Assembly: GCA_051313645.2 (NCBI GenBank)
Contig: JBNRSN020000005.1
Coordinates: 304,854,001-304,918,000 of the forward strand
Source of the DNA: Centroscyllium fabricii
Taxonomy: Eukaryota
Length of the DNA: 64,000 nt
Direction: 5' to 3'
The notes under the pieces are model-generated. The model worked only from the letters and a program-made list of their open reading frames with translations, did no database searches and was not told the DNA's origin. This document shows positions 2,575-52,171 of this stretch, piece by piece. Position numbers and translations under genes: made by a program. Within the stretch, counting starts at the first letter, position 1; every line of letters begins with the position of its first letter.

Positions 2575-3359
2575 CAGGTTGGGCAACGGTAATCCGGCAC
2601 CCGATAATTCGGCACCTTCAGTGGTCCGGCACGGATCCCGTTGGCCGGCCCACGTGATTCCAGGGACGCTCGCGAACCGCCAGCACTCCGTGATGCACGG
2701 GCCTCTCCCCGGCAGCACCCGCGATGCGCGGGCCTCTCCCCGGCAGCACCGGAGAGTCCCAGGACCGCGAATCCCATTCCCGCACTCTTTGCACCGTTCT
2801 ACGCGCGCGCAGCGGCCATTCTGACTGCTCTACGCATGCGCGGTGGCCATTTTGAATGGTCTGCGCATGCGCTCCTCGAATCTTCAGTGGTTCGGCATTT
2901 TCAGTAGTCCGGCACCGGCCTGGTCCCGAGGATAGAAACATAGAAACTAGGAGCAGGAGTAGGCCATTCGGCCCTTCGAGCCTGCTCCGCCATTCAATGA
3001 GATCATGGCTGATCATCCAAACCCAGTACCCCGCCCCTGCCCTCCCCCATATCCCTAGATCCCTATCGAGCCTGCACCGACACATATCCCACCCTATCCC
3101 CGTAACCCCACATATTCAATCCCCCTGACACTAAGGGTCAATTTATCATGGCCAATCAACCTAACCCGCACATCTTTGGACTGTGGGAGGAAACCGGAGC
3201 ACCCGGCGGAAACCCACGCAGACACGGGGAGAATGTGCAAACTCCACACAGATAGTCACCCGAGGCTGGATTTGAACCCGGGTCTCCAGTGCTGAGACAA
3301 CAGTGCTAACCACTGTGCCACCGTGCCGCCAGGATGCTGGATTAACGGTGCTCAACCTG
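2575..3359. mobile_element. Tigger/pogo-like MITE (CAGGTTGAG TIR family)
   Basis: TA|CAGGTTGGGCAACGGTAATCCGGCA ... TGCTGGATTAACGGTGCTCAACCTG|TA. The empty site ATTTACTACCCTCTGAG is visible in the sister CR1 at about 44742. Confidence 0.9.
2932..3327 (-). mobile_element. HE1 V-SINE, full length
   Basis: tRNA-like head (reverse complement GGCACGGTGGCACAGTGGTTAGCAC...GGTTCAAATCC), V-domain TGTGTGGAGTTTGCACATTCTCCCCGTGTCTGCGTGGGTTTC, CR1-like tail; AGGAT at both junctions. Confidence 0.9.
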
Positions 3360-4694
3360 TACCCTCTGAGTGAAGAAGTTTCTCCTCGTCTCAGTTTTGA
3401 AAGGGCAGCCCCTTATTCTAAGATTATGCCCCCTAGTTCTAGTCTCACCCATCAGTGGAAACATCCTCACCGCATCTACCCGATCAAGCCCCCTCACAAT
3501 CTTACATGTTTCGATAAGATTGCCTCTCATTCTTCTGAATTTCAGTGAGTGGAGTCTCAACCTACTCAACCTTTTTAGGTTGAAGCATCAAAATAAAGGG
3601 TGATAATGCAAAAATGTAATCGAGGAATTCATGGATTTGGGGTGTCAGGCGATGGCACTTTGGAGTTGTATGGTCTGTCCCCCAATAATTTGCATGTTCT
3701 GTATCTATATTATAGTCTTATTGTTTTGATGCGTTTAGATCATGGATATACTTCCTGGCAGTGTTACATGTGGGTTTTTTAGCGCTGCCTGCTCTGTTCA
3801 GCAGCTGTTGTGGCCCAGAAGCAGCAACTTTCAGCCAAGCAGTAAAAGCAATACATGATGCTGGTGCCAGAGGTCATTCTGCTGTGGCTCACAGACCTGT
3901 CATAAAGAACAGTATGGAGTACTTTTTAATAATTGTCCACATACAGTACTTAAAGCGTAATTAAAAGAAATACATGCTTTGTGTCTTTTATTGTTCACAG
4001 AAGTTGGATATTTTTTTCTTTTTCGACAAAAAAAAAAGTTGCTAAAATGAAGCTTTGTGTTTTAGTAGATGCACATGGCTGGCTATCAAACTTAGCACAA
4101 TCAAAACAGCTGGACAAAGTGGGTAATCAAGCTAGTGAGGCAGTTAATGGCACTATTTCAAGAATGTAATTGGAAAGAAATTGCTCAAGGCACAGAACAA
4201 CTAATGTCACTTACAGTTGTGATTTATCAGGAGTGCAGAAGGACGGAGATTTAATGGGAGACTTGCAAGATTTTAGAACTTTCTTTAAAAAAAAAAAAGA
4301 AGCAAGTTCCTATTTCTCGGTGGGCTCTCCGTTCAAGTGCGGCAGGAAACTGGCATCAAGTGCCCTGCACAGATCTGATTTTAGCTGAGGAGTTTTGCAA
4401 GGCAGTTTTCCTTGATGCTGTGCCATTGATGGCACTGCTAATATAAATAATCTGACTTTGAGACCCAGTGACATCAGAGGCACTTTTACATCAGAAGTGC
4501 TTGTTTAGTTCAGATCACAGGAGAGCAGTGTCTGTGTGCCACATCTACATTGTTGAAACTGCTCCCTTTATCCCAGCATGGGGGACTGGAGGTGGCGGGG
4601 GGGGCGGGGGGCGGGCGGGAGGGGAGAGGGGATAGTTCAGTCAGCAAAGACAATTTTTGAAAGATGGGTTATATTCTTGGCCTAGATTTTTGTG

Positions 4695-4849
4695 ATAATG
4701 TGGAGGTGCCGGTGTTGGACTGGGGTGGACAAATGCAAGATGTCACACAACACCAGGTTATAGTCCAACAGTTTTATTTTAAATCACAAGCTTTAGGAGC
4801 TTTTGCCCCTTCGTCAGGTGAAAGAGAGAGACCGACTTGAAGAATGCAC
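4695..4849 (-). mobile_element. Penelope family A 3'-terminal fragment with a degenerate hammerhead
   Basis: Matches the terminus at 14619-14770; ATTTTTGTG is repeated at 4686-4694 and 4850-4858 (TSD). Confidence 0.8.
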
Positions 4850-5441
4850 ATTTTTGTGGTTTGATGAATTCTAAGACAATGTAGGTGTATGAGGTGGGCA
4901 GAAGTAGAAAGCACAAAAAGGCAAATTTTCAGGTATGAAATATTTGTATTGCTATGTATTTTCAACATTTGTAGTTCCCCCCCCCCCCCCTCCCCTTTTT
5001 TCTCTTAACATTTGAGGGGACTGAAGGTCTTAATGCATTTAATATTTGTAAAAAGTATTTGTTTGAATAGCAATCTGTACTTGGTGTTGAGAAGAGCATT
5101 TGGGGGCCGTATTTTGCACAGCAAAAATTTCTTTAAAGAAATTGCTGCCGTGAAACAGGATGTCTTTACTTTTAATTTTGCCAAGATTAATGTTGCGTTG
5201 AATGGAGGAAATGTTTTCCTTATCTTCCAAGTGGTTCATGCAGTTCACTGTACATGGTTGCTGCAATTTTTTAAAGGTGGTTGGGGATCTAATTTTTTAG
5301 GCTGAATTTTAACAACAAAATTGACAATTAGGCAAAAGATTTTGTATGATTCATAAACAGTGATCACATTAAACCATTGGGAGAAATTTTACATTCTTTG
5401 CCGTAAAAGTTTTGGGAATTATCTGTACGAGCTGCCTTCTA

Positions 5442-6851
5442 CAATTCAATTCAATTCAATTCAAGTTTTATTGTCATTGCAGAGTACCAGTACAATACAA
5501 CGAGACGAAGACTCGACTCTCCCGAGAGTAGTGCAAATAAAATAAATAAATTACATGCAAAATGCATACAGTAGAGTACATTATCAGGCGTGCAGGTACC
5601 GGAGTTTCTTTTTAGAGTTCAGGAGGCTGACCGCCCTGGGGAAGAAGCTGTTTTGAAATCTAGTCGTGCGGGTGCAAATTGCTCTGTAGCGTCTCCAGAG
5701 GGGCGAACAGACTGTGGCTGGGGTGTGTGGGGTCTTTAATAATGTTCAGAGACCTCCGTAAGCAGCGTTTGAGGTAGGAGCGTTCGATTGACGGTAGCTG
5801 AGTGCCGGTGATTCGTTGGGCAGTTTTGACTACCCGCTGCAGGGTTTTCCGGTCCGAGATAGTGCAATTACCATACCAGACAGTGATGCAGCTTGTCAGT
5901 ATGCTTTCTATTGTGCAGCGGTAGAAGTTGGAGAGGATGCCGGATGACAGCCTGGCTTTCTTCAGCTTCCTTAGGAAGTACAGGCGCTGTTGGGCCTTCT
6001 TAACCAGAGAGGAGGTGTTTAGTGACCAGGAGAGATCTTCCGAGATGTGGACCCCGAGGAACTTGAAGCTGGACACCCTTTCCACCTCAGCCCCTTGGAT
6101 GAAGATGGGGGTGTGTCTTCTGCTTCCAGTCCTCCGGAAGTCCACTATGATCTCCTTGGTTTTCTTGGTGTTCAGTGCCAGGTTGTTGTCGGCACACCAA
6201 CCCACAAGGCGCTGGATCTCATCCCTGTAGGCTGACTCGTCGTTGTTGGTGATCTGGCCAACCACCGTGGTGTCATCCGCGAACTTGATGATCGTGTTGG
6301 AGCCATGGACAGCCGCACAGTCATGAGTGAAGAGGGAGTAGAGGAGGGGGCTGAGCACACAACCTTGTGGGGCCCCCGTGTTCAGGGTAAGGGGTGGGGG
6401 AGGTGAGGTTGCCTAACTTCACAGACTGTGGTCTGTTGGTTAGGAAGTCCAGGGTCCAGTTGCAGAGGGAGGTGTTCAGGCCGAGGGTGAGGAGTTTGGT
6501 AGACAATTTGCTGGGGACGATGGTGTTGAATGCTGAGCTGTAGTCAATAAACAGCATTCTGATATATGTATCTTTGCTATCCAGGTGGTTTAGTGCAGAG
6601 TGAAGAGCCGTAGTGATAGCATCCTCTGTAGATCTGTTCCCACGGTAGGCGAACTGTTATTGGTCCAGGGCGGCGGGGATGCTGGCTTTGATGTGGGCCA
6701 GGACCAGCCGCTCGAAACACTTCATGATAATGGGTGTAAGTGCAACAGGGCGGTAGTCGTTCAGGCACGTCACGGCCGTTTTCTTGGGCACAGGGATGAT
6801 GGTGGCGGTTTTGAAGCAGGTAGGGACAGCTGCCTTCGCCAGTGACAGGTT
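5442..6851 (-). mobile_element. Rex1/Babar LINE, 5'-truncated, frameshifted RT
   Basis: (TTGAA)n tail; peptides [66 protein letters not shown] and FKFLGVHISEDLSW. Confidence 0.92.
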
Positions 6852-7116
6852 GGGGAAATATATAACTCCTGCTGGCTCGAGGCTCTGATGGAGATTAAAA
6901 ATAAAAAAACGAAAAATGCGGACATGCCCGCAAAGTTTCAACTGGTACCTGAACCATCCAGACCCCTTGGGCTGTGCTGAGCAAGCTGATCTTAGCCAGT
7001 GTAGTGATGATTCTTTGAAAGGTCACACCTGAGTTCTAATGAAGAATCATAACTAAAACTTAAAAAAATTCAAGTGCTGATAACTCATTTCCAACATATT
7101 TTGTTGTATTATAATA

Positions 7117-7493
7117 CAGGAAACTCTTCTTTATCCGGGCCCGGCGTGGTGCCGGTTTATCAAAATGTCCGGATTACAGAGAGTTATAGTTAAAAGGTAC
7201 GAGAGCCCCGTGCACAACAACAAATCCAGGTGTCCCTGTCGCTTAGCAATAGGTGCTGGAACACTGGCCAGAAGATCAGGCATCCCTGTTGCTTAGCAAC
7301 AGGTGCAGGAACCCCGGCCAGAAGATCAGGCGTCCCTGTTGCTTAGCAACAGGTGCAGGAACCCCGGTTACACGGCCACAGATCCAGGAACAGCCACTAA
7401 TATGAATTAAAACTTACCTGAACCTACTCTTGAATTTTGCCGGTTAACAGAGATTTCCAGTTATTTAGGTGCCGGTAAATCGCGAGTTTCCTG
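7117..7493. mobile_element. Tigger/pogo-like MITE (CAGGAAACTC TIR family) with an internal 50-bp tandem repeat
   Basis: TA|CAGGAAACTC ... GAGTTTCCTG|TA; three 50-bp units at about 7227-7367. Confidence 0.88.
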
Positions 7494-8621: not shown

Positions 8622-9154
8622 CAGGAAACTCTTTGGTATCCGGCACCGATGGGACCGGCTCGTTGCCGGTTGATCAAAAATTCCGGATGACGGAGAGGGT
8701 TATCTACCGAGGCGAGTTTTAACAAAGAAAAATGTAAAAATCAAGAAATGTGCAGTATACAGTAATTGGGTACTCGCTTACAGAATGTTGTGTTAAATGG
8801 ATGGTGGAAGATGCTTGATTAAGTACAGTACTGCCAGTTGAGGGTAATGCAATGCAGTGACTACCAGCAGTGTGGGAGACACCCAGTACCCCCGTAAAAT
8901 GACAGATCAGAAGATACTACCGGCAGGACCGGAGAGTCCGACTCCTGTTACAGGGGCATTGAAGTGTTCTGACTCCCAACAGCGCCAAGAAGCCGAGTAG
9001 TGGCAGTTTGGAGAACTACCCCCACTGACTAACTCGGCCACCACAGGAGACTCGGCAACATTGCTGGTTATTGAGGTGTTATTTTCGGATGAGAATTTTG
9101 CCGGTTAATAGAGAATTCTGGATATTTAGGTGCCGTTTAAACAAGAGTTTCCTG
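8622..9154. mobile_element. MITE (CAGGAAACTC family)
   Basis: CAGGAAACTCTT ... AAGAGTTTCCTG|TA; the interior is shared with 43449-43791. Confidence 0.88.
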
Positions 9155-9694: not shown

Positions 9695-10700
9695 GAATCG
9701 TGGAATCATAGAATATTGCAGCACAGAAGGAGGCCATTCGACCCATCGTACCTGTGCTGGTTCTTTGAAAGAGCTATCTAATTAGGCCCATTATTTCGCC
9801 ATAGACCTGCAAATGTGTCCGTTTCAACTGTACACGGTTGAGCACCGTTAATCCGGCACGGTCGAGACCAGGACCGTGCTGAATTTTTGAAAACTCCGAA
9901 TGATTGAAGTTCGGCAAGCGCATGCGCAGACCATTCAAAATGGCCACCGCAAAATTTTGAATGGTCTGCGCATGCGCTCGCCGAAGCATAAATCATTCGG
10001 GGGGCGGCCCGGGCATGCGCAGCCAAGTGCGGCGGCCTCATTGCGCTTGCGCAGACCAGTCGAGGAGGCCTGGGCATGCACAGCCACGCGCGGTGGCCAT
10101 TTTGCGCATGCACAGGGCAGTCGGGTAGAGACCTGGGCATGTGCAACCAAGCGCGGCGGCTTTATTGTGCATGCGCAGACCAATCGGAGAGGCCCAGGCA
10201 TGCGCAGCCACGCGTGGCGGCCATTTTGCGCATGTGCAGACCAGTTGGGCAGTCGGGGAGAGGCCTGGGCACGCACAGCTAAGCGCGGCGGCCATTTTGC
10301 GCATGTGCGCACCAGTCGGCCAGATTTGTGCCGGATGTTTGTAGTTGCCGGACAAACAGTGTCCAGATTAACGGTGCTCAATCTGTATCGTCAATTACCG
10401 TTTGAAAGTTACTATTGAATCTGCTTCCGCCTCCCTTTCCAGGTCATCATAACTCACAGTCCAGATCATCATAATTCGCTGTGTAAAAAAAAAAAAAAAA
10501 AATTTTTTTAATTCTCATCTCCCCTCTTTTCCCAATTATCTTAAATTGGTGTCCTCTTGTTACTGACCCACCCTCCAGTGGAAACTGTTTCTCTTTATTC
10601 ACTCTCTCAAAACCCCCATAATTTTAAATCTCCCTGTAACTGTTTCTGCTACAAGGAGAACAATCCCAGCTTCTCTTGTCTCTCCACATAACTGAAGTCT
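9695..10700 (-). mobile_element. Old CR1 3' remnant interrupted by a MITE
   Basis: GAATCATAGAAT...CACAGAAGGAGGCCATTCGACCCATCG tail; decayed CR1 C-terminal sequence resumes after 10387. Confidence 0.65.
9833..10385. mobile_element. MITE (CAGGTTGAG family) with a GCGCATGCGC/GGCCATTTT repeat core
   Basis: TIRs GTTGAGCACCGTTAATC / GATTAACGGTGCTCAATCTG with TA flanks. Confidence 0.88.
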
Positions 10701-13536: not shown

Positions 13537-13883
13537 CAGGTTGAGCACCGGTAATCCAGCCCCCTCGGTACTAGGCCGGTGCCGGACCATTGAAAATTCC
13601 GATCCACTGAAGGTTCGGGGGGAGCGCGCGGGTAGAACACTCCCCGGGGACCGGAGCGCGTGGGTACAACACTCCCCGGGAGGGAGCCCGGGAATAGAAC
13701 ACTTAAAGACCTAAAATAGCAGCAACCCGAACGCCCGACGCCTTCGGCGCTCGCCCACCCTTCGCGGGAAACGGTGGCGCTGCCGAGCGGCTGCTCCGCA
13801 AAATGAAGAGTGCCGGTTTCCAATCGTGCCGAACCACTGAAGCTGCCGGACCATCGGGTGCTGGATTACCGGTGCTCAACCTG
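13537..13883. mobile_element. MITE (CAGGTTGAG family, GAGTGTTCTA-repeat subfamily)
   Basis: Perfect TIR CAGGTTGAGCACCGGTAATCCAGC / GCTGGATTACCGGTGCTCAACCTG|TA. Confidence 0.9.
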
Positions 13884-14210: not shown

Positions 14211-16025
14211 TAATTTTACCAGCAATGCCGATGGAAATTTGAATGCTGAAAATAACGTAGGAAATACACGTGTAGTATGCACAGACGCAGAGTTTAAAAG
14301 GCAAGAGTAATGTATAAGCGTTGAGGGCAATCGAGAGTATGTTACTGGATGGTTAATTACTTTTTGCCCATCATACTGTCACTTTTATGTTGATGCAAGC
14401 AATTTTGGATGTGAACTTGGGCCTTGAAATTACGCTGATTGATTAAAGATAGGAGCCCTTTAAATCCATTTATCTTGCGTGGGTTCACACTTTCACTGAA
14501 ACAGCAGAATTTCAGTGGAATGCAATACACATTCGTTTGCTACCATCCTGTAATTCCAAAGCCCTTTTTTTTTTAAATGTTGGGTGAAACTAGAATAGAG
14601 TGATGCTGAGAATCTGTGGTGTGGAGGTGCCGGTGTTGGACTGGGGTGGACAAATGCAAGAAGTCACACAACACCAGATTATAGTCCAACAGTTTTATTT
14701 TAAATCACTAGCTTTCAGAGCTTTTGCCCTTTCGTCAGGCGAAAGAGAGACTGACTTAAAGAACACACATATGGGACGATGGGAGAAATCCGATATCTCC
14801 CACATCTCACCTTAGCAGAGATAGACACACAAAGGCGTATTAACATATTTTAAGAGTTTCATTTAAACATAGCAAATATAGAGAGAGATAACAATGTGGT
14901 CTGTCCAGCTGTTTCACATCACACCTCAGCTGAGGGACATCAAAGCAATCAAAGGTGTTCCAACATATCAGCCAGCCTGAGATCAAAGGGTGCAGGCACA
15001 AAGGGTCAAACGCTACAGTCTGCTGTCCTTGAAAATCCCACAGAATGATTTTTTTAAAACAAGGATTTTTCTTACTTAAAATCGCAGAACAAGCCAAAGA
15101 TGGTTCGAGTCTGGATGACTCTACGTCAGGCGGGGTCACATGTAGCGCGACATAAATCCAATAACCCGGTTGAGGCCGTGCTCATGGGTGCGGAACTTGG
15201 CTATCAGCCTCTGCTCGACGATTTTGCGTTGTCGTGTGTCTCGAAGGCCACCCTGGAGAATGCTCACCCGAAGATCGGAAGCTGAATGTCCTTGACTGCT
15301 GAAATGTTCCCCGACTGGGAGGGAACACTCCTGCCTGGCGATTGTTGCGCGGTGCCCGTTTATCCGTTGTCGTAGTGTCTGCATGGTCTCGCCGATGTAC
15401 CATGCCCCGGGGCATCTTTTCCTGCAATGTATGAGGTAGACAACATTGGTCGAGTTACATGAGCATGTACCTGGTGTGTTGTGTCCTCACGTGTGATGAT
15501 GGTATCTGTGCTGATGATTTGGCACGTTTTGCAGAGGTTGCTGTGGCAGGGTTGTGTGGTGTTGTGGTTGCTGTTCTCCTGAAGGCTGGGTAATTTGCTG
15601 CGAACGATAGTCTGTTTGAGGTTAGGTGGCTGTTTGAAGGCGAGTAGTGGAGGCGTGGGGATGGCCTTAGCGAAGTGTTCGTCATCAGCAATGACATGTT
15701 GAAGGCTGCGAAGAACATGGCGTAGTTTCTCCACTCCGGGGACGTACTGGACGACAAAGGGTACTCTGTTGGTTGTGTCCCGTGGTTGTCTTCTGAGGAG
15801 GTCTATGCGATTTTTCGTTGTGGCCCGTCGGAACTGTCGATCGATGAGTCGAGTGTCATATCCCGTTCTTACGAGGGCGTCTTTCAGTGTCTGTAGGTGT
15901 CCGTCGCGTTCCTCCTCATCTGAGCAGATCCTGTGTATTCGCAGGGCTTGTCCATAGGGGATGGCTTCTTTAACGTGGTTCGGGTGGAAGCTGGAGTAGT
16001 GGAGCATCCTGAGGTTGTCCGTGGG

Positions 16026-18700
16026 AAACTCGGCATCACCACCAGCAGCAACCAAGCCTCCACCGGTACCACGGTCGAAACCACAGGGAAATCCATCGTC
16101 AACTTGTCTGACCACACCCTTCAACCAGATGAAATCGAAGTTCTCAGCTGAGGGCTCAATTTCTGCCCCACCACCAAAATGGACCCCATCGGTCTTGCGG
16201 CGGACACAGACGAATTCATCAGGAGAATAAGGCTCCGGGAATACTTCCACAGATCCCAAGATGTCAGCGAACCCAATGAGACAATCAATGATCCGGAACA
16301 GCTGATAGAGGAATCCGCAGTGCAGCAACCAAAGAAGAAAGAATCAAATTAGACCCCTCCGGAGGGCCGCTGCCCTAAGCTGGACATGTATGGTCAAGCT
16401 GTCAGGAGATGCATCCATGCCAAATTCATCAGCCGCACTCAAGACAGTCCAGAATGTCACCCGAGCACAACGTGACACCATCCGTGCTCTCAAGACCAAC
16501 CACAACATCGTCATCAAATCGGCAGACAAAGGAGGAGCCATCGTCATAGAAACATAGAAGATAGGAGCAGGAGTAGGCCATTCGGCCCTTCGAGCCTGCT
16601 CCGCCATTCAACGAGATCATGGCTGATCATCCAAACCCAGTACCCCGCCCCTGCCCTCGCCCCATATCCCTCGATCCCTATCGAGCCTGAACTGACACAT
16701 ATCCCACCCTATCCCCATAACCCCACATATTCAATCCCCCTAACACTAAGGGTCAATTTATCCTGGCCAATCAACCTAACCCGCACATCTTTGGACTGTG
16801 GGAGGAAACCGGAGCACCCGGAGGAAACCCACGCAGACACGGGGAGAATGTGCAAACTCCACACAGATAGTACCCGAGGCTGGATTTGAACCCGGGTCTC
16901 CAGTGCTGTGAGACAACAGTGCTAACCGCTGTGCCACAGAACAGAACAGACTATTGCAAAGAAGCATACCGACAACTGGACAACCAAGAACACTACAGAC
17001 AGCTACCCGCAGATCCGACCAAGGAACACACCCGCCAACTCAACAGACTGATCAAGACCTTCAATCCAGACTTTCAGGGCACCCTACGCGCCCTCATCCC
17101 ACGGAATCCCCGCATGGGAGATTTCTACTGCCTCCCAAAGATACACAAAGCCAACACACCTGGACGCCCTATTCTATCAGGCAGTGGAACCCTATGTGAG
17201 AACCTCTCTGGATACATCGAGGGCATCCTGAAACCCATCGTACAGAGAACCCCCAGCTTTTGTCGCGACACTGCAGACTTCTTAGAAAAACTCGGCACCC
17301 ACGGACCAGTTGAACCAGGAACACTCCTTGCCACGATGGACGTCTCGGCACTCTACACCAGTATCCCCCACGATGACGGCATCGCTGCGACAGCTTCAGT
17401 ACTCAACACCAACAACAGCCAATCTCCAGACGTCATCCTACAACTCATCCGCTTCATCCTTGACCACAATGTTTTCACCTTCGACAACAATTTTTTTACC
17501 CAAACACACAGAACAGCCATGGGGACCAAATTCGCACCCCAATACGCCAACATCTTCATGCACAAGTTCAAGCAAGACTTCTTCGCTACACAGTACCTCC
17601 AACCAACGCTATACACCAGATACATCAACAACATTTTCCTCCTGTGGACCCACGGTGAAGAATCACTGAAAAGACTACACGATAACATAAACAAGTTCCA
17701 TCCCACCATCAAACTCACCATGGACTACTCCTCAGAATCGGTTTCATTCTTGGACACACGAATCTCCATCAAAAACGGATGCCTCAGCACTTCACTCTAC
17801 CGCAAACCCACGGACAACCTCAGGATGCTCCACTACTCCAGCTTCCACCCGAACCACGTTAAAGAAGCCATCCCCTATGGACAAGCCCTGCGAATACACA
17901 GGATCTGCTCAGATGAGGAGGAACGCGACGGACACCTACAGACACTGAAAGACGCCCTCGTAAGAACGGGATATGACACTCGACTCATCGATCGACAGTT
18001 CCGACGGGCCACAACGAAAAATCGCATAGACCTCCTCAGAAGACAACCACGGGACACAACCAACAGAGTACCCTTTGTCGTCCAGTACTTCCCCGGAGCG
18101 GAGAAACTACACCATGTTTTTCGCAGCCTTCAACATGTCATTGATGATGCCGAACACTTCGCTAAGGCCATCCCCACGCCTCCACCACTCGCCTTCAAAC
18201 AGCCGCCTAACCTCAAACAGACTATCGTTCGCAGCAAATTACCCAGCCTTCAGGAGAACAGCAACCACGACACCACACAACCCTGCCACAGCAACCTCTG
18301 CAAAACGTGCCAAATCATCACAGATACCATCATCACACGTGAGGACACAACACACCAGGTACATGGTACATACTCATGTAACTCGACCAATGTTGTCTAC
18401 CTCATACGTTGCAGGAAAAGATGCCCCGGGGCATGGTACATCGGCGAGACCATGCAGACTCTACGACAACGGATGAACGGGCACCGCGCAACAATCGCCA
18501 GGCAGGAGTGTTCCCTCCCAGTCGGGGAACATTTCAGCAGTCAAGGACATTCAGCTTCTGATCTTCGGGTGAGCATTCTCCAGGGTGGCCTTCGAGACAC
18601 ACGACAACGCAAAATCGTCGAGCAGAGGCTGATAGCCAAGTTCCGCACCCATGAGCATGGCCTCAACCGGGATATTGGATTTATGTCGCGCTACATGTGA
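16026..18700 (+). pseudogene. Penelope RT + GIY-YIG endonuclease ORF (disrupted)
   Basis: SIVNLS.., ADKGGAIV, FYCLPKIHK..PGRPI, LATMDVSALYTSIPH, TAMGTKFAPQYANIFM, RYINNIF (YIDD lost), FLDTRI, Cys linker CHSNLCKTC, VVYLIRC..C..AWYIGET..LRQRMNGH and HGLN. Interrupted by a SINE at 16545-16937 and a probable frameshift near 16440. Confidence 0.93.
16545..16937 (-). mobile_element. HE1 V-SINE inserted in the Penelope ORF
   Basis: Near full-length HE1; removing it restores the peptide GAIVIQNRTDYC. Confidence 0.92.
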
Positions 18701-19845: not shown

Positions 19846-19895
19846 ATTAAACTTTAGTTCATCAATTTGCCACTAGATTATTTCACATGCTGGTA

Positions 19896-20427
19896 CAGGC
19901 TGAGCTTCGTTAATCTGGCGTGGTCGGGACCAGGACCGTGCCGAATTTTTGAAAAATCCGGATGATTGAAGTTCGCCGAGGGCCGCCACGAAATTTTGAA
20001 TGGTCTGCGCATGCGCTTGCTGAGAGGCCCGGGCATGCACTGCGAAGCGCAGCGGTCATATTGCGCATGCGCAGACCAATCGGGGAGGCCCGGGCATGCG
20101 CAGCCACGCACGGTGGCCATTTTGCCCATGCGCAGAATAGCCGGCGTGCGTGGCTGCGCATGCCCGGGCCTCCCTGATTGGTCTGCGCATGCGCAGCCAC
20201 GTGCGGCGGCTATGTTGCGCACGTGCAGACCAACCGGGGAGGCCTGGGCATGCACAGCCATGCGCAGCGGCCATTTTGCGCACGCACAGGGCAGTCGGAC
20301 AGAGGCCTGGGCATGCGCAGCCACGCACGGCGGCCATTTTGCGTATGCGCGCACCAATCGGCCAGATTTGTGTCGGACGTTTGAAGTTGCTGGACAAATG
20401 GTGTCCGGATTAACGGTGCTCAACCTG
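19896..20427. mobile_element. MITE (CAGGTTGAG family), same subfamily as 9833-10385
   Basis: TA|CAGGCTGAGC...GATTAACGGTGCTCAACCTG|TA; GCGCATGCGC arrays. Confidence 0.9.
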
Positions 20428-29900: not shown

Positions 29901-30431
29901 CAGGTTGAGCACCGTTAATCGGGCACGGGCGGGACCAGGCCCGTGCCGGGAAATGGAAAAAACCGGGAGAACGAGTTTGGACACTGCGCATGCACGCCAG
30001 TCAAAATGGCCGCGCGCATGCACGCAGCATTGCGATTGGCTGGCGCGCACATGCGCAGATCGGGCCCGGGTCCGCCGTCCCTCTCCATCGCCTTTGGGGT
30101 TGCTGCTGCCGCCGAGCGGGACTCAGGCTGACAGCTGTTGCCTAGTGACTGTCCGCCTCAGTCACGGGGCTCAGCTATCGAGAAAATAACGGGCGGCCGT
30201 ATTGAATTATCTGCGCATGCGCTAACCGTCCGGTGATGCATGCGCAGATCATTCAAAACACCCGCAGCTGTTTTGAATGATCTGCGCATGCGCTTGGCGC
30301 ATGCGCAGATCATTCGCTGAAGCCACGATGGGGGCTGCCATTTTGCGCATGCGCAGTGCAGTCGGGACAATTTGTGCCGGCAGACTGAAGCTGCCGGCTA
30401 TTCGGGACACGGATTAACGGTGCTCAACCTG
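29901..30431. mobile_element. MITE (CAGGTTGAG family)
   Basis: TA|CAGGTTGAGCACCGTTAATC ... GATTAACGGTGCTCAACCTG|TA. Confidence 0.92.
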
Positions 30432-31139: not shown

Positions 31140-32310
31140 TGCAACTATACAGTACCCTTCACATCTTGGAGAAATCTCGGCGCTCTTCTCAGCCCATGCA
31201 TTACTTTGAAATGTAGTAACTGTTGCGAAGGCAAATGTGGAAACACAGCAAGATCCCACAAACAGCAACCAGATGAATGTTGATCTGCGTTTGGTGGTAT
31301 TGGTTGAGGGAAAAGTCAGGGCCAAGGCAGCAGAAGGAACTCCCTGCTGTTCCTCATATACAGGTCCGACACCGTCAGGACCAGGCCGGTGCCGGACTAG
31401 TGAAAAATCCCAACGACTGAAACTTCGGCGAGCGCATGCGCAGACCATCCAAAATGGCCACCGCGCATGCGCAAACCATTTAAAATGGCCGCCACGCATT
31501 TACCCCAGGTTTAGAGTTAATGTGGAGATATATTGATATTTAGTGATATTTACCTCAAGTTTGCCGATAATTTTGAATAATTTGAGTTTTTTTTATTACC
31601 TCTGGGTGCTCCCGCCGCTCACCAGGCCCGAGACGAATTCTTCCATCTGATGCCTGACCGCCATTTTGGTTGAGACTTCCCACCCGCCTCGGCCTTGGCC
31701 AATCATAGCAGCCGCTGCCCATTCCAGCCAATCGAGAGCGGCGGCGTCTGGCGTTAAGCTGGGGGGCGGGGCTTCGAGTGTCATGGGGCCATTGGGAAAC
31801 CGAGGTTGGATTTGGAGGTGTGTGTCTGATGGCCATCTTTGTATAGGGAACGTATGTACTCTTGGTGAGCATGGTGGGGGGCATCTTTGTAAAGGGAAGG
31901 GCGAATGGCGTCATGCCGGCAACCCAGCCAAACGTTGACAGAATGGCATGCAAAGTGACGGTGGCCATCTTGGTAAAGGCGCCCAAAGCCTGGAAGGAAA
32001 AGGAAAACTTGCGATTCGGCAGCGCCTTTCACCACCTCAGGCCGTCCCAAAGCGCTTGACAGCCAATGCGCATGCGCAGACCAGTCGGGGAGAGGGCCGG
32101 ACGACTGAAGTTTCCAGATTAACGGTGTCCGGATTACTGGTGCCGGACCTGTAGTTGCATGGGATCTTGACTGTTTACCTGAACACCAGAACAGGCAGAT
32201 CTCTGTTTAACATCCCACCTGGAAGACAGCACCTCCTGTAGTACCGCATTGGACTGTTGGCTACATTATGTGTTGAAGTCTTGGGAGTGGGGCTTCAGTG
32301 CAACTACCAC
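31140..32310 (-). mobile_element. Deu-domain SINE (SacSINE1/AmnSINE-like) interrupted by a MITE
   Basis: CACAGCAAGATCCCACAAACAGCAA..TTGGTTGAGGGA..GAACTCCCTGCT, then the MITE, then CATGGGATCTT..TTTAACATCCCACCTGGAAGACAGCACCTCC. Confidence 0.7.
31361..32151. mobile_element. MITE, CAGGTCCG terminal variant with a promoter-like core
   Basis: TA|CAGGTCCGACACC ... GGTGCCGGACCTG|TA; subterminal blocks are shared with the CAGGTTGAG family. Confidence 0.85.
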
Positions 32311-32337: not shown

Positions 32338-33040
32338 GAAGATTTGCATTTATGCAGTGACTTTCACGACTTCAGGATGTCACAAAACGCTTTACAGCTA
32401 ATGAAGTACTTCATGAACTGTGGTCACTGTTGTAATGTAAGAAACGCGGCAGCCTATTTGCGTTCTGCAAGGTCCCCCAAACAACAGTGTGATCATCTTT
32501 ATTCGTGGTGTTGCTTGAGGGACAAATATCAGCCAAGACATTGCTCTCCTTTGAAATAGTGCCATTGGATGTTTTATGTGCACCTGAGAGGGAAGACGGA
32601 GTCTCGGTTTAACACCTCATCTGAAGGACCGCACCGCCATCAGTGCTGTACTCCCTCAGTACAGGAAACTCTTTGCTATCCGGCACTGATGGGACCGGGA
32701 TGGTGCCGGTTGATTAACAATTCTGGATAACGAAGAAGGGACATTCAGTGACCCAAGGTACGCGAGCCCCGTTCCACAGCCGCGAGTGCTGGAGGCCCCG
32801 TTCCACAGCCGCAGGTACAGGGGACCAGGTTACACTGCAAAAGGTCCAAATATACAGTATAGAGAAGCCTCAAAACCGACTCCAAAATTTTGACGATTAT
32901 TAGAGAATTCCGGATAATAAGGTACCGTTTAAACGAGAGTTTCCTGTATTGCATTGGAGTATCAGCTGAGTTTTTGTGCTCAAGTCTCTGGGACCCACAA
33001 CCATCTGACTCATAGGTGAGCTTGCTCCCCACTGAGCCAC
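32338..33040 (-). mobile_element. Deu-domain SINE, near full length, interrupted by a MITE
   Basis: TTGCATTTATGCAGTGACTTTCACGAC tail, GTCACTGTTGTAATGTAAGAAACGCGGCAGCC and CACCTGAGAGGG..CTCGGTTTAAC body, tRNA-like head ending ACTGAGCCAC. Confidence 0.8.
32662..32946. mobile_element. MITE (CAGGAAACTC family)
   Basis: TA|CAGGAAACTC ... GAGTTTCCTG|TA; its removal restores the SINE sequence CTCAGTA|TTGCATTGG. Confidence 0.9.
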
Positions 33041-35393: not shown

Positions 35394-35767
35394 CAGGTTG
35401 AGCACCGGTAATCCGGCACCCGATGGTCCGGCAGCTTCAGTGGTTCGGCACGATTGGAAACCGTTCCTCTGCATTTTGCGGAGCAGCGGCTTGGCGGCGC
35501 CACCATTTCCCGCGAAGGGTGAGCTAGCGCCGAAGGCGTCGGACGTTTGTGTTTTTTTTTTAGGTGTTCTAAGTGTTCTATCCCCGGGCTCACTCCCGGG
35601 GAGTGCTCTACCACGCGTTCCTGGCCCCGGGCAGTGTTCTACCGCGCGCTCCGGGCCCCGGGGAGTGGTCTACCGCGCGCTTCCCCCGAACCTTCAGTGG
35701 TTCATAATTTTCAGTGGTCCAGCACCGGCCTGGTCCTGAGGGTGCCGGATTAACGGTGCTCAACCTG
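35394..35767. mobile_element. MITE (CAGGTTGAG family, GAGTGTTCTA-repeat subfamily)
   Basis: TA-flanked TIRs; about four internal repeat units. Confidence 0.92.
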
Positions 35768-36340: not shown

Positions 36341-36943
36341 CAGGTTGAAGTTCGTTAATCTGGCACCCGAAAAACTGGCAGCTTCAGTCGTTCGGCACAG
36401 ATTTTCCCGACTGCCCGGTGCATGCGCAGACAATTCAAAATTGCTGCCGTCGGGGCTAGGCTTCCCTTTCACCTCACATATACTCACTAGATCCCGGCTT
36501 AGTGACCACCCCGATGCCGATGGTGAATCCCAGGCCCAGAAGATGAGCTGTTGTGCCAGCCGCCTTTCGCAAGACGCGATACAGGCATTTCTCGGTGCCC
36601 ATCGCTGCCGGAGGCTCCTGCCTGGCTGCGTGCTGACGTCACCGCGTTCCGAAGCTGGCGTGCGGTGGCGTCACGTGAGCCGGGCTTGAGCCGCACATTG
36701 GGCCTCTGGCCCGCTGGAGCCGTGCAGCCCGCTCCCTGACCCGCAGTAGAATCGAGTGCGAGTTCCACCCGACCCGTGGGCTGAAAATCAACTTCCAGGT
36801 ACCGGCGAGCGCATGCGCAGAGCACTGAAAATTTTCCGGTGGCTATTTTGAATGCTCTACGTATGCGCTTCAATAATTCGGCGTTTTCAACAATCCGGCA
36901 GGGTGCTGGTCCTGACCCTGCCAGATTAACGAACTTCAACCTG
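36341..36943. mobile_element. MITE (CAGGTTGAAG variant) with a unique CpG-rich core
   Basis: Perfect 25-bp TIR CAGGTTGAAGTTCGTTAATCTGGCA; right TA intact. Confidence 0.9.
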
Positions 36944-41755: not shown

Positions 41756-42290
41756 CAGGTTGAGCACCAGTAATACGGCACCCAGTGGTCTGGCACGATT
41801 GGAAACCGGTGGTTTTCATTTTGCGGAGCAGCTGCTCGGCGGCGCCACCATTTCCCCTGAAGGTTGGGCGAGCGCCGAAGGCATCGGGCGTTTGGGTTGC
41901 TGTTTTTTAAGGTTCTGTAAGTGTTCTATCCCCGGGTTCCCTCGTGGGGAGTGTTCTACCCGCGCGCTCCGGGCCCCGGGGAGTGTTCTACTGCGCGCTC
42001 CGGGCTCCCTCCCCGGGAGTGTTCTACCGCGCGCTCCGGGCCCCACGCAGTGTTCTACCGCATGCTCCAGGCCCCGGGGAGTGTACTACCGCGCGCTCCG
42101 GGCCCCTGGGAGTGTTCTACCGCGCGCCCCAGGCCCCGGGGAGTGTTCTACTGTGCGCTCCGGGCTCCCTCCCGCGGAGTGTTCTACTGCGCGCTCCGGG
42201 CCCCAGGGAGTGTTCTACCGCGCGCTCCCCCCCGAACCTTCAGTGGTCCGGCCTGGTCCCGAGGGTGCCGGATTAACGGTGCTCAACCTG
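41756..42290. mobile_element. MITE (CAGGTTGAG family) with an expanded ~31-37-bp minisatellite
   Basis: TA-flanked TIRs; about 10 GAGTGTTCTACCGCGCGCTCCGGGCCCC-type units. Confidence 0.92.
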
Positions 42291-43389: not shown

Positions 43390-43448
43390 ATTTCCCATCC
43401 ATGTGACATCTTCAAGTGAAGTCTTCAATTCGTGTTGAATTATAAGTA

Positions 43449-43791
43449 CAGGAAACTCTTTATTATCCGGGACCGGCGTGTTGCCGGTTTATCAAAATTT
43501 CTGGATGACAAGAGAGGGTTATCTACCGAGGCTCTTTTTAAACAAAGAAAAATTAAAAAAATCAAGAAATGTGCAGTATACAGTAATTGGGTACTCACCT
43601 ACAGAATTTTGTGTTAAATGGATGTGGCTTGTGGCAGTTTGGAGAACTACCCCCACTGATTAACTCAGCCACCACACGAGACTTGGACTCTGCAACATTG
43701 CCAGTTATTGAGGTGTTGTTTTCGGATGAGAACTTTGCCGGTTAATAGAGAACCCCGGATATTTAGGTGCCGGTTAAACAAGAGTTTCCTG
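43449..43791. mobile_element. MITE (CAGGAAACTC family), shorter relative of 8622-9154
   Basis: TA-flanked TIRs; lacks the segment corresponding to about 8805-8995. Confidence 0.9.
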
Positions 43792-44524
43792 TAGTGTTTT
43801 TTTTAACCATGGACTTGGCATACTTGGAGCCAAGCTGAGACTGGACAAACTATTTTACTTGGAATGCTTACAGCTTGCAGAGAGAGTTCACCCCATCAGT
43901 CTGGACCAGTTTCACACCCAGGGCCCAGAGGGGACTAAGCTGTGTTCTGACACCGTGTAAGATCGAACCGCCGGCTCAATTCCAACTTTGTTCCCTATTT
44001 GTTGATGCCCTTACCAAATAAAAATCTCAATCTCAGTCTTGAGAATTTCATTTGACCCAGTATCCATATTCTTTTGGGCGAGGGAGTTCCAGAATTCCTC
44101 TTCCCTTTGTGCGAAAAGATGCCTCCTGGTTACAGTCCTAAACGGCATAGCTCTAATTTCAAGATTGTGCCCTCTTCTGGATTCTCCACCAGAGGAAATA
44201 GTTTTTTTCTGCATTGAATCCCCTTTAGCATTTTGAAGACCTCGATTAGATCACCCCTCAACCTTCTGAACTCCAGAGAATAGTAGCCAAGTTTATGCAA
44301 CCTGTTCTCCTAACTGAACCCTTTAAGCCTTGGTATAATCCTGGTGAATATTTGCTGTACCCCTTCCAAGGCCAGTACAGGTTGAGCACCGGTAATCCAG
44401 CACCCTCGCGACCAGGCCAGTGCCGGACCATTGAAAATTCCAAACCACTGAAGGTTCGGGGGGAGCGCGCGGGTAGAATACTCCCCGGGGCCCAGAGCGA
44501 GCGGATAGAACACTCCCCGGGAGG

Positions 44525-46177
44525 ACATAAGAAGTAGGAGCAGGAGTCGGCCATACGGCCCCTCGGGCCAGCTCCCCCATACAATAGGATCATGGCTGAT
44601 CCGAACTTAGACTTGCGTCCACTTCCCTGCCCGCTCCCCGTAACCCGTTATTCCCCTATCAGTTAGGAAACTGTCTATCTCAGTTGTAAATTTATCTAAT
44701 GTTGCAGCTTCCACAGCTCTCTGAGGTAGTAAATTCCATAGATTTACTACCCTCTGAGTGAAGATGTTTTTCCTCATCTCAGTTTTGAAAGGGCAGCCCC
44801 TTATTCTAAGATTATGCCCCCTAGTTCTAGTCTCACCCATCAGCGAAAACATCCTCACCGTATCAACCCGATCAAGCCCCCTCACAATCTTATATGTCTA
44901 GATAAGATCGCCTCTCATTCTTCTGAATTCCAGTGAGTAGAGGCCCAACCTACTCAACCTTTCCTCATAAGTCAACCCCCTCATCGCCGGAATCAACCGA
45001 GTGAATCTTCTCTAAACTGCCTCGAGAGCAAGTATATCTTTTCTTAAATATGGAAACCAAAACTGTATGCAGTATTCCAGGTGTGGCCTCACCAGCACCC
45101 TGTATAACTGCAGCAAGACTTCCCTGCTTTTATACTCCATCCCCCTTGCAATAAAAGCCAAGATTCCATTGGCCTTCCTGATCACCTGCTGTACCTGCAT
45201 ACTGCACCCGGACCCCCAGATCCCTTTGTACTGTAGCACTTTGCAGTTTCTCTCCATTTAGATAATACAGGTTGAGCACCGGAAATCCGTGACCCGAAAC
45301 GCCGGCAGCTTCAGTCTTCCAGAACAACTTGCCCCCACTGCGCATGCGCAAAATGGCAGCCGCGATCGTGGCTTCGGCAGAATGATCTGCGCATGCGCCG
45401 CCGAACGGCGAGCGCATGCGCAGATCATTCAAAAAGGCTGCCGATGTTTTGAATGATCTGTGCATGCGCCGCCGGACGGCAAGCACATGCGCAGATCATT
45501 CAAAACGGCCGCCTGACGAGCTGGGCCTTCCGTGGCGTCGGGGCGCGGCGGCTCGCGCCGCGTTTTGAATGTGCGAGTCCCAAGTGCCTGCCATGGTGAA
45601 GCGCGCGGTTCCCCGGAGCAGCCCGCTGGCCGTCATCAGGAGGAACAAACCGCAGCGGAGACTCCGCAAGGACGTCCGGCGGCCATTTCCAATGTTGTGC
45701 GCATCCGTGCGGCCATTTTGAATGGCGCTCGCATGCGCACTGACCGACTTCATTCTGCCGTTTTTTTCACTTTCCCGGCACGGTCCTAGTCCCACCCGTG
45801 CCGGATTTCCGGTGCTCAACCTGCTAACTGGCTCTTCGATTTTTTTTTTGCCAAGTGCATAACCTCACACTTTCCAACATTATATTCCATCTGCCAAATT
45901 TTTGCCCACTCACTTAGCCTGTCTGTCATTTTGCAGGTTTTTTATGTCCTCCTCACTCACTGCTTTCCCTCATATCTTTGTATCGTCGGCAAACTTGGAT
46001 ACGTTGCACTCGGTCCCTTCCTTCAAATCGTTAATGTAGATTGTAAAGAGTCGGGGTCCCAACACCGACCCCTGCGGAACACCACTCGTTACTGATTGCC
46101 AACCAGAGAATGGACCATTTACCCCAACTCCCTGTTTTCGGTTAGATAGCCAAACCTCCACCCATGCCAGTACATTG
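44525..46177 (-). mobile_element. CR1 LINE, 5'-truncated, split by a MITE
   Basis: [41 protein letters not shown] and LYRVLVRPHLEYCIQFW; ACATAAGAAG tail. Confidence 0.92.
45268..45823. mobile_element. MITE (CAGGTTGAG family), innermost element of the nest
   Basis: TIR CAGGTTGAGCACCGGAAATCCG / CGGATTTCCGGTGCTCAACCTG. Confidence 0.9.
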
Positions 46178-46688
46178 GTTAGAGAACCTAAAATAGCAAG
46201 CAACCCAAATGCCTGACGCCTTCAGCGCTCGCCCACCCTTCGCAGGAAACGGTGGCGCTGCCGACCGGCTGCTCCGCAAACTGAAGACCGCCGGTTTCCA
46301 TTCGTGCCGGGCCATTGAAGGTACCAGTCCATCGGGTGCCGGATTACCGGTGCTCAACCTTTCTATCCTTCCTGAGGTACGGCGCCCAAAGCCAAGCACC
46401 GTACTCCAGAGGGTCTGACCAAGGCTCTGCGCAAAGAAAGCATCGCTTCCTCCCGATCCCCTTGAGGCAAGACAAACATTCCAATCGCCTTTTGGATAAC
46501 CTTTGCAGAGAACAGTTTCTGATGAGGTCCATTATTGCTTCTGTGGACTTGCTACTTTCAGACAAAGGTTGTCGGGCCTCAGAAACTAAACTTTGCAGTT
46601 GATCCATGGGAGGCTGAATGATTGTTTTGGGATGGATCTGCTTGGGGCAACAAGGATTCTCTGCCTGTGAAGGTAGCTGAACTCTGGT

Positions 46689-48448: not shown

Positions 48449-49177
48449 CAGGTTGTGCACCGTTAATTCGGCATGGGCGTGACTAGGCCTGCCGGTATAC
48501 CGAAAAAAACGGGAGAATGAAGCCGGCCAGTGCACAGCCATTCAAAATGGCCGCGCGCACGTGCATAATATTGGAAATGGCCGCCGCGAAGTTTTGAAGA
48601 GCCCCGAAGAAATGTTAAATAACAACAGAAAACGTTGGAGAAACTCAGCAGGCCAGGCAGCATCGGTGGAGAGAGGAGCAGAGTTGACATTTCAGGTCGA
48701 TGACCTTTTTTCAAAACTAGAGAAGCCGGGAGGGGAGAGAGATTTTAAAGCTTGTGGGGGAATGTTTATGGATGTGACAGCTGCAGCCACGGAGCTTCTC
48801 ACTCCTCGCGCACATAGAGGGAGCAGGCCTTTTCATCCACAATGTCGGCGCGGGAAACATTTCACACTTGCATTCTCCCACAGGCTTCAGCCCAGCTTTT
48901 ACAAGGAAGCCGCTCCGTGTCCGCACCGCCGGCCGGTCAGCGCCATCTTTCTCACCCGCCCACCCGCAGCATTCTGGGAGCACAGGCACCACTTCTCTTC
49001 CGGCGGCCGTTTTGAATGATCTGCGCATGCACTCGCTGTTCGGCGCATGCGCAGATCATTCGCCGAAGCATCGATCGCGGCAGCCATTTTGCGCATGCGC
49101 AGGACAGTCGGGGCACTTTGTTCCGGAAGACTGAAGCTGCCGGCTTATCGGGTAACGGATCAATGATGCACAACCTG
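48449..49177. mobile_element. MITE (CAGGTTG family) containing a Penelope family B tail (about 48617-48750)
   Basis: TA|CAGGTTGTGCA ... TGCACAACCTG|TA; internal AATAACAACAGAAAACGTTGGAGAAACTCAGCAGGCCAGG. Confidence 0.88.
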
Positions 49178-49862: not shown

Positions 49863-50390
49863 CAGGCTGAGCACCGGTAATCCGGCACCTGATGGTCCGG
49901 CAGCTTCGGTGGTTCGGCACGATTGGAAACCGGCGCTCTTCCATTTTGCGGAGCAGCCGCTTGGCGGCGCCACTGTTTCCCGGGAAGGGTGAGCGAGCGG
50001 CGAAGGCATCGGGCGTTTGGATTTCTGTTTTTTTAGGTTCTCTTAAGTGTTCTATCCCCGGGCTCCCTCCCGGGGAGTGTTCTACCGCGCGCTCCGGGCC
50101 CCGGGGAGTGTTCCGCGCTCCGGGCCCCGGGGAGTGTTCCATCCCCCGGGCTCCCTCCCGGGGAGTGTTCTACTGTGCGCTCCGGGCCCCGGAGAGTGTT
50201 CTATCCCTGGGCTCCCTCCCGGGGAGTGTTCTACCGTGCGCTCCGGGCCCCGGGGAGTGTTCCATCCCCCGGGCTCCCTCCCGGGGAGTGTTCTTCCACG
50301 CGCTCCCCCCGAACCTTCAGTGGTTCAGAAGTTTCATTGGTCCGGCACCGGCCTGGTCCCGAGGGTGCCGGATTAACAGTGCTCAATCTG
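49863..50390. mobile_element. MITE (CAGGTTGAG family) with an expanded alternating minisatellite
   Basis: TA-flanked TIRs; about nine GAGTGTTC units of two mostly alternating types. Confidence 0.92.
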
Positions 50391-50551
50391 TATTTGAAAG
50401 TGGGGAAATAAACATTTGTAGTAACTGAACATTTTTTTGACTGGAATAGAAACAAATCTGAATTTCTTCAGAAAGCCATACCTTTAGCCAACTCATTCGT
50501 TATTGGCTACGGACAGGTTGTCTATCCAGCATATAAAAAGGGGCTAGTCGT

Positions 50552-50712
50552 GCACAGTAGGTCAATCAGCACCTGAACGAGAAAGATAGGTTAACGTTTT
50601 GGATATAACTTTTATTGGCCATATTAACCTAACTTTTGTTAACAGCTGCTGATTGACCAGCTGTGTATTTCCAGTGTTTTCTGTTTAATTTCTGAGTTCC
50701 AGCATTTGTGTT
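50552..50712. mobile_element. Decayed Penelope-type fold-back terminus
   Basis: GGTCAATCAGCA..AGGTTAA versus TTAACCT..TGCTGATTGACC, then a GTATTTCCAGTGTTTTCTGTTT..TTCCAGCAT tail. Confidence 0.5.
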
Positions 50713-51801
50713 TTTTTTTTTTGATCCCTAGTACATAAATTGAAGCATTTTTTTCCTACATCATAATTTTCTCACTGCTCTTAAATGCTTCTTTCTTTCT
50801 GCATACTTTGATATCACTTTGTGACTTAAAGTCTATGTAAAAAGGATTTAAACACGATTTATAAAAAAAAGCAATCTGGGACTGCATTCCGTTCCTGCAT
50901 TTCTGCGTGATTACTATCTTGCACTATCTTGCTGTGTAATTGTGCAGTCCGTAAGCTGGTATGTTGTGGTTTCTGTTCTATCAAATGTTAATGTATTTAT
51001 TTCTTTAATGCAAACTATTTGGTTTGTGGATTAACTTGTTTAACACAAGTATTTGTTGTATTATTAAATAAAGTCTGATTCACTTCTCTTTTTAAAAAGA
51101 CCTGTGAAGATGACATTTCCTCATTACTTTGCTCACTAGGATAGGTAGGGTCTTCATCACACGTAATCTCCTTTACACGAAAACCAGGTGTCACGGAGTC
51201 CCATATAGCGCTTGTTAATGCTGAAATAAAATGGGCAGTATTTTTACCATCCCGCACTAAATACCGGTACTATAATTTGCCGGCTTTTATATTTTAAAGC
51301 AAAGCTTAACATTTCCTCTGCATTCAACAACAGCTCTTGTAAAAAATTGTTAAAACAAGTTTTAAAAAAAAATCCACCATTAACCATGACATTAAAATAC
51401 CTCAAGTACTCCTGAACGGGTCAGTGCATAAATGTGACTGAGCAGTATTCAATTGGAAGTTTCCAAGCATGATCCTTGGCTTAAGTTAGCCAGGGCTGAC
51501 ACGGGAAGTACGTGTTAAGGAATGTCTGGTGAGGACAGTACAGGGCTCACTGTGATGCCCTGAATGGTCAATTTGCTCGCCAGTGTTCACGGTCTTGGTT
51601 CACACATCAAGAATGGACACTGCACCAAGGTACTGGAATGCTGTGATGTCTATGGATTAGGGCCTTCAGATTATTAGTACACCATTCTTTCACTTCTAGG
51701 TTTTGAATTCAGTCGCACTGATGGGTGGAAGTTTTTGGAGGATTGGGGTTTTGCCAGTTTGTGGGGGTAGAATAGAAGCAAGCTAATCTTAATATACAAT
51801 A

Positions 51802-52171
51802 CAGGTTGAGCACCGGTGATCCGGCACCCTCTGGACCAGGCCGGTGCCGGACCAGTGAAAATTCCAAACCACTGAAGGTTCGGGGGGGTGGGGGGGCGCA
51901 CGGTAGAACACTCCCCGGGGCCAGGAGCGCGTGGGTACAACACTTCCCGGGAGGGAGCCCAGGGATAGAGCACTTATAAAACCTAAAAAAAACCAGAAAC
52001 CCCAAAAAACCAGAAACCCAAACGCCCGACGCCTTCGGCGCTCGCTCACCCTTCGCGGGAAACGGTGCCACCGAGCGGCTGCTCCACAAAATGAAGAGCG
52101 GCGGTTTCCAATCGTGCCGGACCACTGAAGATGCCGGACCATCAGGTGCCGGAATACCGGTGCTCAACCTG
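51802..52171. mobile_element. MITE (CAGGTTGAG family, GAGTGTTCTA subfamily)
   Basis: TA|CAGGTTGAGCACCGGT ... ACCGGTGCTCAACCTG|TA. Confidence 0.92.

Follow-up and report, generated by a model that had tools for sequence, protein, structure and literature searches.

Transposons with terminal inverted repeats (TIRs) that enclose a captured piece of a host gene, the Pack-TIRs, have been surveyed in 100 animal genomes; the survey lists 370 Pack-TIRs, four of them multicopy, its frog example has three copies, and the word ‘shark’ is absent from its main text (PMC8277862). Bat Helitrons have been credited with 12,382 copies from 54 genes, with 4,690-5,505 for 5′ pieces (PMC4224331). Here we describe captured gene starts in the shark Centroscyllium fabricii. 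The window, i.e. the whole stretch of 64,000 nucleotides analysed (assembly GCA_051313645.2, contig JBNRSN020000005.1, forward-strand positions 304,854,001 to 304,918,000; G000:C1044:304854001-304918000 in our numbering), contains 18 miniature inverted-repeat transposable elements (MITEs): 14 with CAGGTTGAG-type ends, called A-type, and four with CAGGAAACTC ends, called B-type; the genome searched comprised 7.2 Gb. Very probably these are non-autonomous pogo-type transposons, several subfamilies of which carry pieces of host gene starts and have spread genome-wide, the copies being mostly passengers.

With paired TIRs and a target-site duplication, a host-derived interior, an unlinked parent and multiple copies after capture, this is a Pack-TIR system with unusually high, bat-Helitron-like copy numbers. 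As in the animal Pack-TIRs, TIR ends surround host DNA, the parent has no TIRs and insertion sites after capture are distinct; one frog Pack-TIR carries a 5′ untranslated region (UTR), and repetitive ends with short microhomology have been proposed to drive template switching, the FoSTeST model (PMC8277862). Unlike the surveyed Pack-TIRs, the elements described here yielded 1,600-3,400 search candidates per capture, with several captures on one backbone.

Helitrons are not known to have TIRs or to make a target duplication; the shark elements show both TIRs and TA duplications, with a DDE transposase of pogo type as partner, which places them outside the Helitrons. They resemble the rolling-circle Helitrons of bats in what is captured (promoter, 5′ UTR, first exon and intron start), in reaching thousands of copies and in serial captures (PMC4224331). 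With plant Pack-TYPE elements, including Pack-Mariners, they share conserved ends, variable captured interiors and subgroups with successive insertions; however, plant Pack-Mariners are mostly of low copy number (PMC8903248). No account of this shark family was found in open-access papers; Repbase or Dfam entries or supplements may list it.

Three of the 14 A-type elements have captured the 5′ end of a host gene:

36341..36943, minus strand: A-type Pack-MITE with the start of a cytochrome b561 domain gene
36449..36806, minus strand: captured b561 cargo; 212 bp upstream of the ATG, first coding exon, donor and 39 bp of intron
45268..45823, plus strand: A-type Pack-MITE with the start of CENPW
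45529..45673, plus strand: captured CENPW cargo; 69 bp upstream of the ATG and 27 codons of exon 1
48449..49177, minus strand: A-type Pack-MITE, shortened relative of a 1.2-kb element carrying URI1
48761..48991, minus strand: captured URI1 cargo; 231 bp upstream of the URI1 ATG

The traced cores are 150-375 bp pieces of host gene starts without TIRs. All three parents sit on contigs other than that of the window, each parent exon continues into the rest of its own gene, and the nearest TIR-like end is 22.8 kb (b561), 9.8 kb (CENPW) or 3.6 kb (URI1) away. The b561 and CENPW cargos and the URI1 copy of the window all lie between the same inward-facing blocks. The same cargo boundaries recur in dispersed copies with different flanks, which indicates transposition after capture. 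Pack-type capture, proposed for the family in a preliminary description of this DNA, thus holds for three of the 14 A-type elements, whose parents are TIR-less; the view of most cores as interchangeable promoter cassettes finds no support.

In the b561 element an ATG at 36602 opens 38 codons that are followed by GTGAGT, the splice donor standing at 36487; upstream, the cargo has the motifs TCACGTGA (36671) and TGACGTCA (36634). A Pfam search of the genome picked out two single-exon-domain cytochrome b561 genes by their last exons, and the source of the cargo, G000:C1156:5726003-5726377, is situated 22.5 kb upstream of one of these exons, with a short second exon in between. Source and cargo are 83-84% identical (gaps included) over the 212 bp, exon 1, the donor and the 39 bp of intron, while their flanks are unrelated. 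We take the parent gene to be CYB561D2. Among 30 fetched copies of this type, 27 align over both ends, with unrelated flanks and an average identity of 96.3% to the consensus, from which the host exon differs by seven synonymous and two non-synonymous changes.

The CENPW cargo, with its ATG at 45593, ends 12 bp before the donor. Its 150-bp source (G000:C1:428958824-428958973) is 83% identical to the window copy, and its identity to the family consensus is 87%. Host exon 1 has matches in PDB to CENP-W chains (E 2e-4); of 150 candidates scored, exon 2 alone matched PF15510. The match of CENPW exon 1, the continuation of each parent exon into its gene and the changes in the b561 exon speak for transfer from host to element.

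The third case emerged from a pattern search for the parent of the 48449 element: 30 of its 35 matches were fetched, of which 28 were family copies and two were unrelated, and they revealed a longer element. These ∼1.2-kb relatives carry leader, exon 1 and intron start, and their translated peptide has 90% identity to the N-terminal part of URI1; the peptide matches the sawshark URI1 protein, whose other exons are 87-96% identical to this genome. The parent is on contig C667, where its 5′ CpG island and the long element are 84% identical over 810 bp; the 231-bp cargo of the window is 87% identical to G000:C667:72323661-72323883. A fusion of two genes was considered for the long element and dropped, one host locus accounting for the whole 810 bp; likewise, a repeat piece in 48449 was not captured together with the gene, as the host lacks it and a short duplication flanks it. 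A Pfam search with the short captured peptides gave nothing significant.

Two further observations concern the surroundings of the parent genes. About 9 kb upstream of URI1 there is a TIR-less inverted duplicate of its 5′ region, 95% identical over 1.2 kb (L314, G000:C667:72333131-72333930). GC-rich minisatellites flank the first exons of b561 (L091) and URI1 (L313); one could speculate that the tandem cores of some MITEs derive from such DNA.

All 18 element starts reported in the preliminary description carried the ends ascribed to them, and a mismatch scan found a right-end partner for each, with 0-1 such matches per window in a shuffled control (n=5 windows). The TIR of the 31361 element has an 11-base deletion and that of 9833 a one-base insertion. 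TA flanks, said to be present at most elements, are indeed found on both sides of 13 and on one side only of the other five. We also removed the element plus one TA and compared the joined flanks with uninterrupted copies of the surrounding repeat; the result is limited to three elements, as the junctions of 9833 and 45268 were ambiguous and the other 13 had no spanning matches. A junction gap was seen in 2 of 68 spanning matches for 2575 (51 of 52 with both TAs kept), in 0 of 24 for 44378-46361 (4 of 4) and in 2 of 17 for 32662 (12 of 13), i.e. TA was duplicated at all three sites. The 18 elements are TA-duplicating pogo-type MITEs. Those of A-type have a GC content of 60% and an observed/expected CpG ratio of 0.96, against 43% and 0.51 in the rest of the window. 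The lack of a transposase in the window was borne out by tblastn. The remaining elements are as follows (strand given where assigned):

2575..3359: A-type MITE; core is part of a dispersed repeat unrelated to the family; TA duplication at the empty site
∼2932-3326: ∼395-bp repeat resembling a short interspersed nuclear element (SINE), inside the 2575 element
7117..7493: B-type MITE; 60-70 bp autonomous-pogo ends; core with two GTTGCTTAGCAAC motifs; parent untraced
8622..9154: B-type MITE; plain internal-deletion derivative of a 2.38-kb pogo
9833..10385: A-type MITE; core built from the GCGCATGCGC/AAAATGGCC block, repeated in tandem and inverted
13537..13883: A-type MITE; common G1 core, without GCGCATGCGC block; source untraced
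19896..20427: A-type MITE; tandem-block type like 9833
29901..30431, minus strand: A-type MITE; young subfamily; ∼130-bp promoter-like core with ATG; parent untraced
31361..32151, minus strand: A-type MITE; core of ∼500 bp containing two CCAAT boxes, a GC box, several AAGATGGC motifs, an ATG and donor-like sites
32662..32946: B-type MITE; 60-80 bp pogo ends; core unmatched by the autonomous element
35394..35767: A-type MITE; G1 core
41756..42290: A-type MITE; G1 core, tandem unit expanded
43449..43791: B-type MITE; internally deleted derivative of the autonomous pogo
44378..46361: A-type G1 element split by the 3′ fragment (∼44525-46185) of a long interspersed nuclear element (LINE), which holds the element at 45268
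49863..50390: A-type MITE; G1 core
51802..52171: A-type MITE; G1 core

Other repeats of the window are fragments that we take to be LINE-like and Penelope-like; two of the latter, with reverse transcriptase/endonuclease sequence, lie in opposite orientation at 15136-18700, one having a 609-residue stop-free frame. The last 12 kb (52200-64000) have no element ends and are more AT-rich, and between 40 and 100 kb rightward of the window most stretches contain no insertions.

One 28-base A-type end has 16,636 exact matches in the genome, a control sequence having none. Of the 119 A-type ends counted in 754 kb that had been selected without regard to these elements (window included), 11 were of this form; scaling from this share gives an estimate of ∼90,000 CAGGTTGAG-type elements (52,000-177,000), or about one per 80 kb. 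The window has 5.3 ends per 10 kb, ∼10 times the density at six mid-contig sites (5 ends in 120 kb), so that the dispersal of roughly one element per 3 kb, suggested earlier as a property of the genome, is a local one. Searches with single cores gave candidate numbers, which are first-look search numbers and not copy numbers, of 2179 (b561), 3372 (CENPW), 1661 (URI1), 439 (29901) and 220 (31361); the captured gene starts have probably spread to many sites, in the thousands. The 754 kb held 50 complete A-type elements: 13 with the G1 core, six with the 29901 core, four with CENPW, two with b561 and one with the 2575 core; 24 matched no cargo query, and many of those printed were tandem expansions.

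The cores other than the three captures are of several kinds. Six of the 14 A-type elements (13537, 35394, 41756, 44378, 49863 and 51802) have in common the G1 core with its ∼31-bp tandem unit, and two more cores, those of 9833 and 19896, consist of the GCGCATGCGC/AAAATGGCC block expanded in tandem. This block is present in eight of 13 intact A-type elements scanned, in none of the four of B-type and nowhere else in the window. In contrast to the earlier description of several unrelated GC/CpG-rich cores, the cores are not all unrelated to one another. The 2575 core matches an unrelated dispersed repeat at 77-80% over 70 bases in two of three loci checked, and the GTTGCTTAGCAAC motifs of the 7117 core are presumably RFX X-box-like. 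The cores of 29901 and 31361 look like gene starts; in the 29901 subfamily the 25 top copies average 98.1% identity to the consensus. When sequence contigs of four relatives were compared with positions 29850-32200, element ends and the 31361 cargo were present in relative X1, while X2, X6 and X11 lacked the ends; with ends in only one of four relatives, the family may be restricted to one shark lineage. The comparison revealed no parent transcript for 31361.

Some A-type elements outside the window have cargo of other kinds. A G1-type element ∼32 kb to its left (L256:8143-8646, G000:C1044) contains ∼110 bp that code for the last part of a MAM domain (E 4e-4, short of the Pfam cut-off), an internal-exon capture. 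The elements at L250:5014-5658 and L252:7581-8292 have the first ∼30 bp of the CENPW cargo and then unrelated, partly repetitive non-promoter DNA, which suggests serial replacement of cargo in this subfamily. An A-type element at L368:89-697 has another gene-start-like cargo, with a CCGGAAG start and donor-like GTGAGC.

Turning to the source of mobility, we found CAGGAAACTC ends at 25 of the first 30 DDE_1 loci. The autonomous B-type element is 2.38 kb long and has the domains CENP-B_N, HTH_Tnp_Tc5 and DDE_1; the DD32D spacing, seen in 43 of 44 readable cases, is within the pogo range DD29-59D, and its TA duplication, TIRs and length agree with the values for pogo as well (TIRs of up to 40 bp, lengths of 1.2-5.2 kb). 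In TA duplication, short TIRs, domains and spacing the B-type is like Tigger/pogoR, and domains with DD32D spacing fit pogo, Tigger or pogoR alike (PMC7386202). The pogo identity given in the preliminary description thus applies to the B-type; unlike Tigger/pogoR, the A-type has no transposase of its own among 72 DDE_1 loci, i.e. the autonomous pogo that was to be looked for exists with CAGGAAACTC ends and was not met with CAGGTTGAG ends among these loci. Elements 8622 and 43449 align end to end with the autonomous pogo; these two do not, therefore, follow the interchangeable-core pattern at first attributed to all four B-type elements; only 7117 and 32662 have pogo ends around cores unmatched by the autonomous element. 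The ends of the two types align with each other, and their common CAGG and internal ATCCGGCAC blocks make cross-mobilisation plausible. A-type elements were also found inside B-type transposase genes, so some of them moved after those copies had inserted.

Two other pogo-related loci were considered as the autonomous A-type element and rejected. An uninterrupted 501-residue pogo-derived open reading frame (L341:2420-3922), 27% identical to the mobile transposase, has no TIRs and is probably a domesticated TIGD-like gene; the A-type element with further cargo just downstream (L341:4182-4583) is merely a neighbouring MITE. A third pogo family (L242:2352-4620), 2.27 kb long and 42% identical to the B-type transposase, differs in its TIRs, the ends being CAGGTTCACAATCCC.

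What became of the cargo after dispersal was assessed in top BLAST matches, a biased set, so that the rates are biased low. Transitions at CpG exceeded non-CpG C/G transitions 4.6-fold in the b561 cargo, 6.4-fold in CENPW, 8.1-fold in URI1 and 5.3-fold in 31361, the 29901 cargo having zero changes to count; in the transposase gene the ratio was 5.3 and 5.5. The ratio of non-synonymous to synonymous change (pN/pS) in copies was 0.65, 0.99 and 0.69 (20+31, 10+29 and 15+29 changes). CpG decay like that of the transposase gene suggests that the copies are probably methylated. Judged from substitutions, the pattern would fit germline methylation and little constraint, and is silent on single exapted copies. 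Most copies are thus probably methylated, neutrally decaying passengers rather than working promoters; the CpG-island-like cassettes of the preliminary description find no counterpart in these four families, whose copies show no CpG protection.

Insertion at TA, capture from three genes, amplification after capture and CpG decay, with later deletion and insertion in master copies, are directly visible. For the capture itself, a likely course would be template switching while DNA is repaired or replicated, with ordinary transposition thereafter. The hairpin-prone GCGCATGCGC/AAAATGGCC block just inside the ends may stall synthesis, upon which the polymerase would switch to GC-rich host DNA via 1-4 shared bases; the rare product could then be amplified in trans by a pogo transposase, of the CAGGAAACTC family or of an unseen sister. 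A-type elements fold strongly (z -5.9 and -11.3).

Several points weigh against this account. Only three of the 14 cores were traced to parents: the top 30 DNA matches of 31361 were all family copies and its protein search gave no match, whereas for 29901 there was no protein match either, and an element-excluding pattern returned 557 matches, of which all 12 fetched were family members. The CENPW host exon differs from the consensus by one synonymous and five non-synonymous changes, which by themselves do not support the direction of transfer, and it is from position that we infer promoters rather than 5′ UTR in the captured upstream pieces. The capture step, too, is deduced, not observed; junction microhomologies of 1-4 bases were read by eye and are weak, the left junction of URI1 not being resolvable. 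A block-free G1 element also folds (z -4.7), which leaves the hairpin step weakly supported, and the block is not required for capture, as a G1 element with exon cargo shows. Among the 72 DDE_1 loci examined, out of 150 listed and 1715 candidates, none had a transposase between A-type ends, and the single B-type element for which a full translation was made contains a stop close to the N-terminus. Finally, a SINE control gave a CpG ratio of 2.3, and the decay rates come from the biased set mentioned above.

Other readings of the same data were weighed. The repeated blocks, which we take to be NRF1- and YY1-like, might draw the element to active housekeeping promoters, and promoter cargo might keep new copies open and confer an advantage in transposition. 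All three traced cargos are indeed gene 5′ ends, the untraced cores of 29901, 31361 and L368 look similar, and copy numbers are higher in bat Helitrons whose cargo is a 5′ piece (PMC4224331). However, the traced cores were picked for an ATG and a recognisable peptide, a choice that favours first exons; the cargo also includes an internal MAM-domain exon, repeat fragments and the non-promoter DNA that replaced CENPW cargo; the commonest class in the census of 50 was G1, with 24 elements matching no cargo query; and the CpG decay of the cargo equals that of the transposase gene. We consider this reading possible but rather doubtful. Its stronger form, in which the block steers capture to active housekeeping or cell-cycle gene starts, promoter-loaded versions out-transpose empty ones, activity is very recent (as the near-identical 29901 copies might suggest) and some copies, out of tens of thousands, serve shark genes as novel promoters or splice donors, seems to us unlikely.

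That the cores arose de novo by slippage and hairpin rearrangement inside the MITE, promoter motifs being a by-product, would suit 9833, 19896, the tandem portion of the G1 core in its six elements and numerous elements of the flanking DNA. Such a process cannot yield 150-810 bp matches at 83-87% to the first exons of three genes; it is refuted as a general account, and we give it a very low probability. The reverse direction, i.e. host gene starts exapted from the MITE, could be argued from the sequence common to host and element and from family copies within a few kb of URI1 exon 1. Yet the parents have neither TIRs nor the repeated block, CENPW exon 1 is homologous to the PDB chains, the b561 exon has a 47% identical counterpart in the paralogue, and element ends are absent from the sequence sets of three of four relatives; exaptation is thus exceedingly improbable. 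Capture of host gene starts by pogo-type MITEs is the reading that we retain.

Reports on animals describe the capture of genes by TIR transposons as a rare event whose products nearly always stay at one copy; in this shark several captures share one backbone, at copy numbers otherwise reported for bat Helitrons. For shark genome annotation and read mapping, the copies will give false first-exon matches for CENPW, URI1 and b561 genes. Known parents and thousands of dated copies put two questions within reach of a test: whether promoter-like cargo is advantageous to the transposon or just captured more often, and at what rate CpG-island sequence loses its properties once moved.

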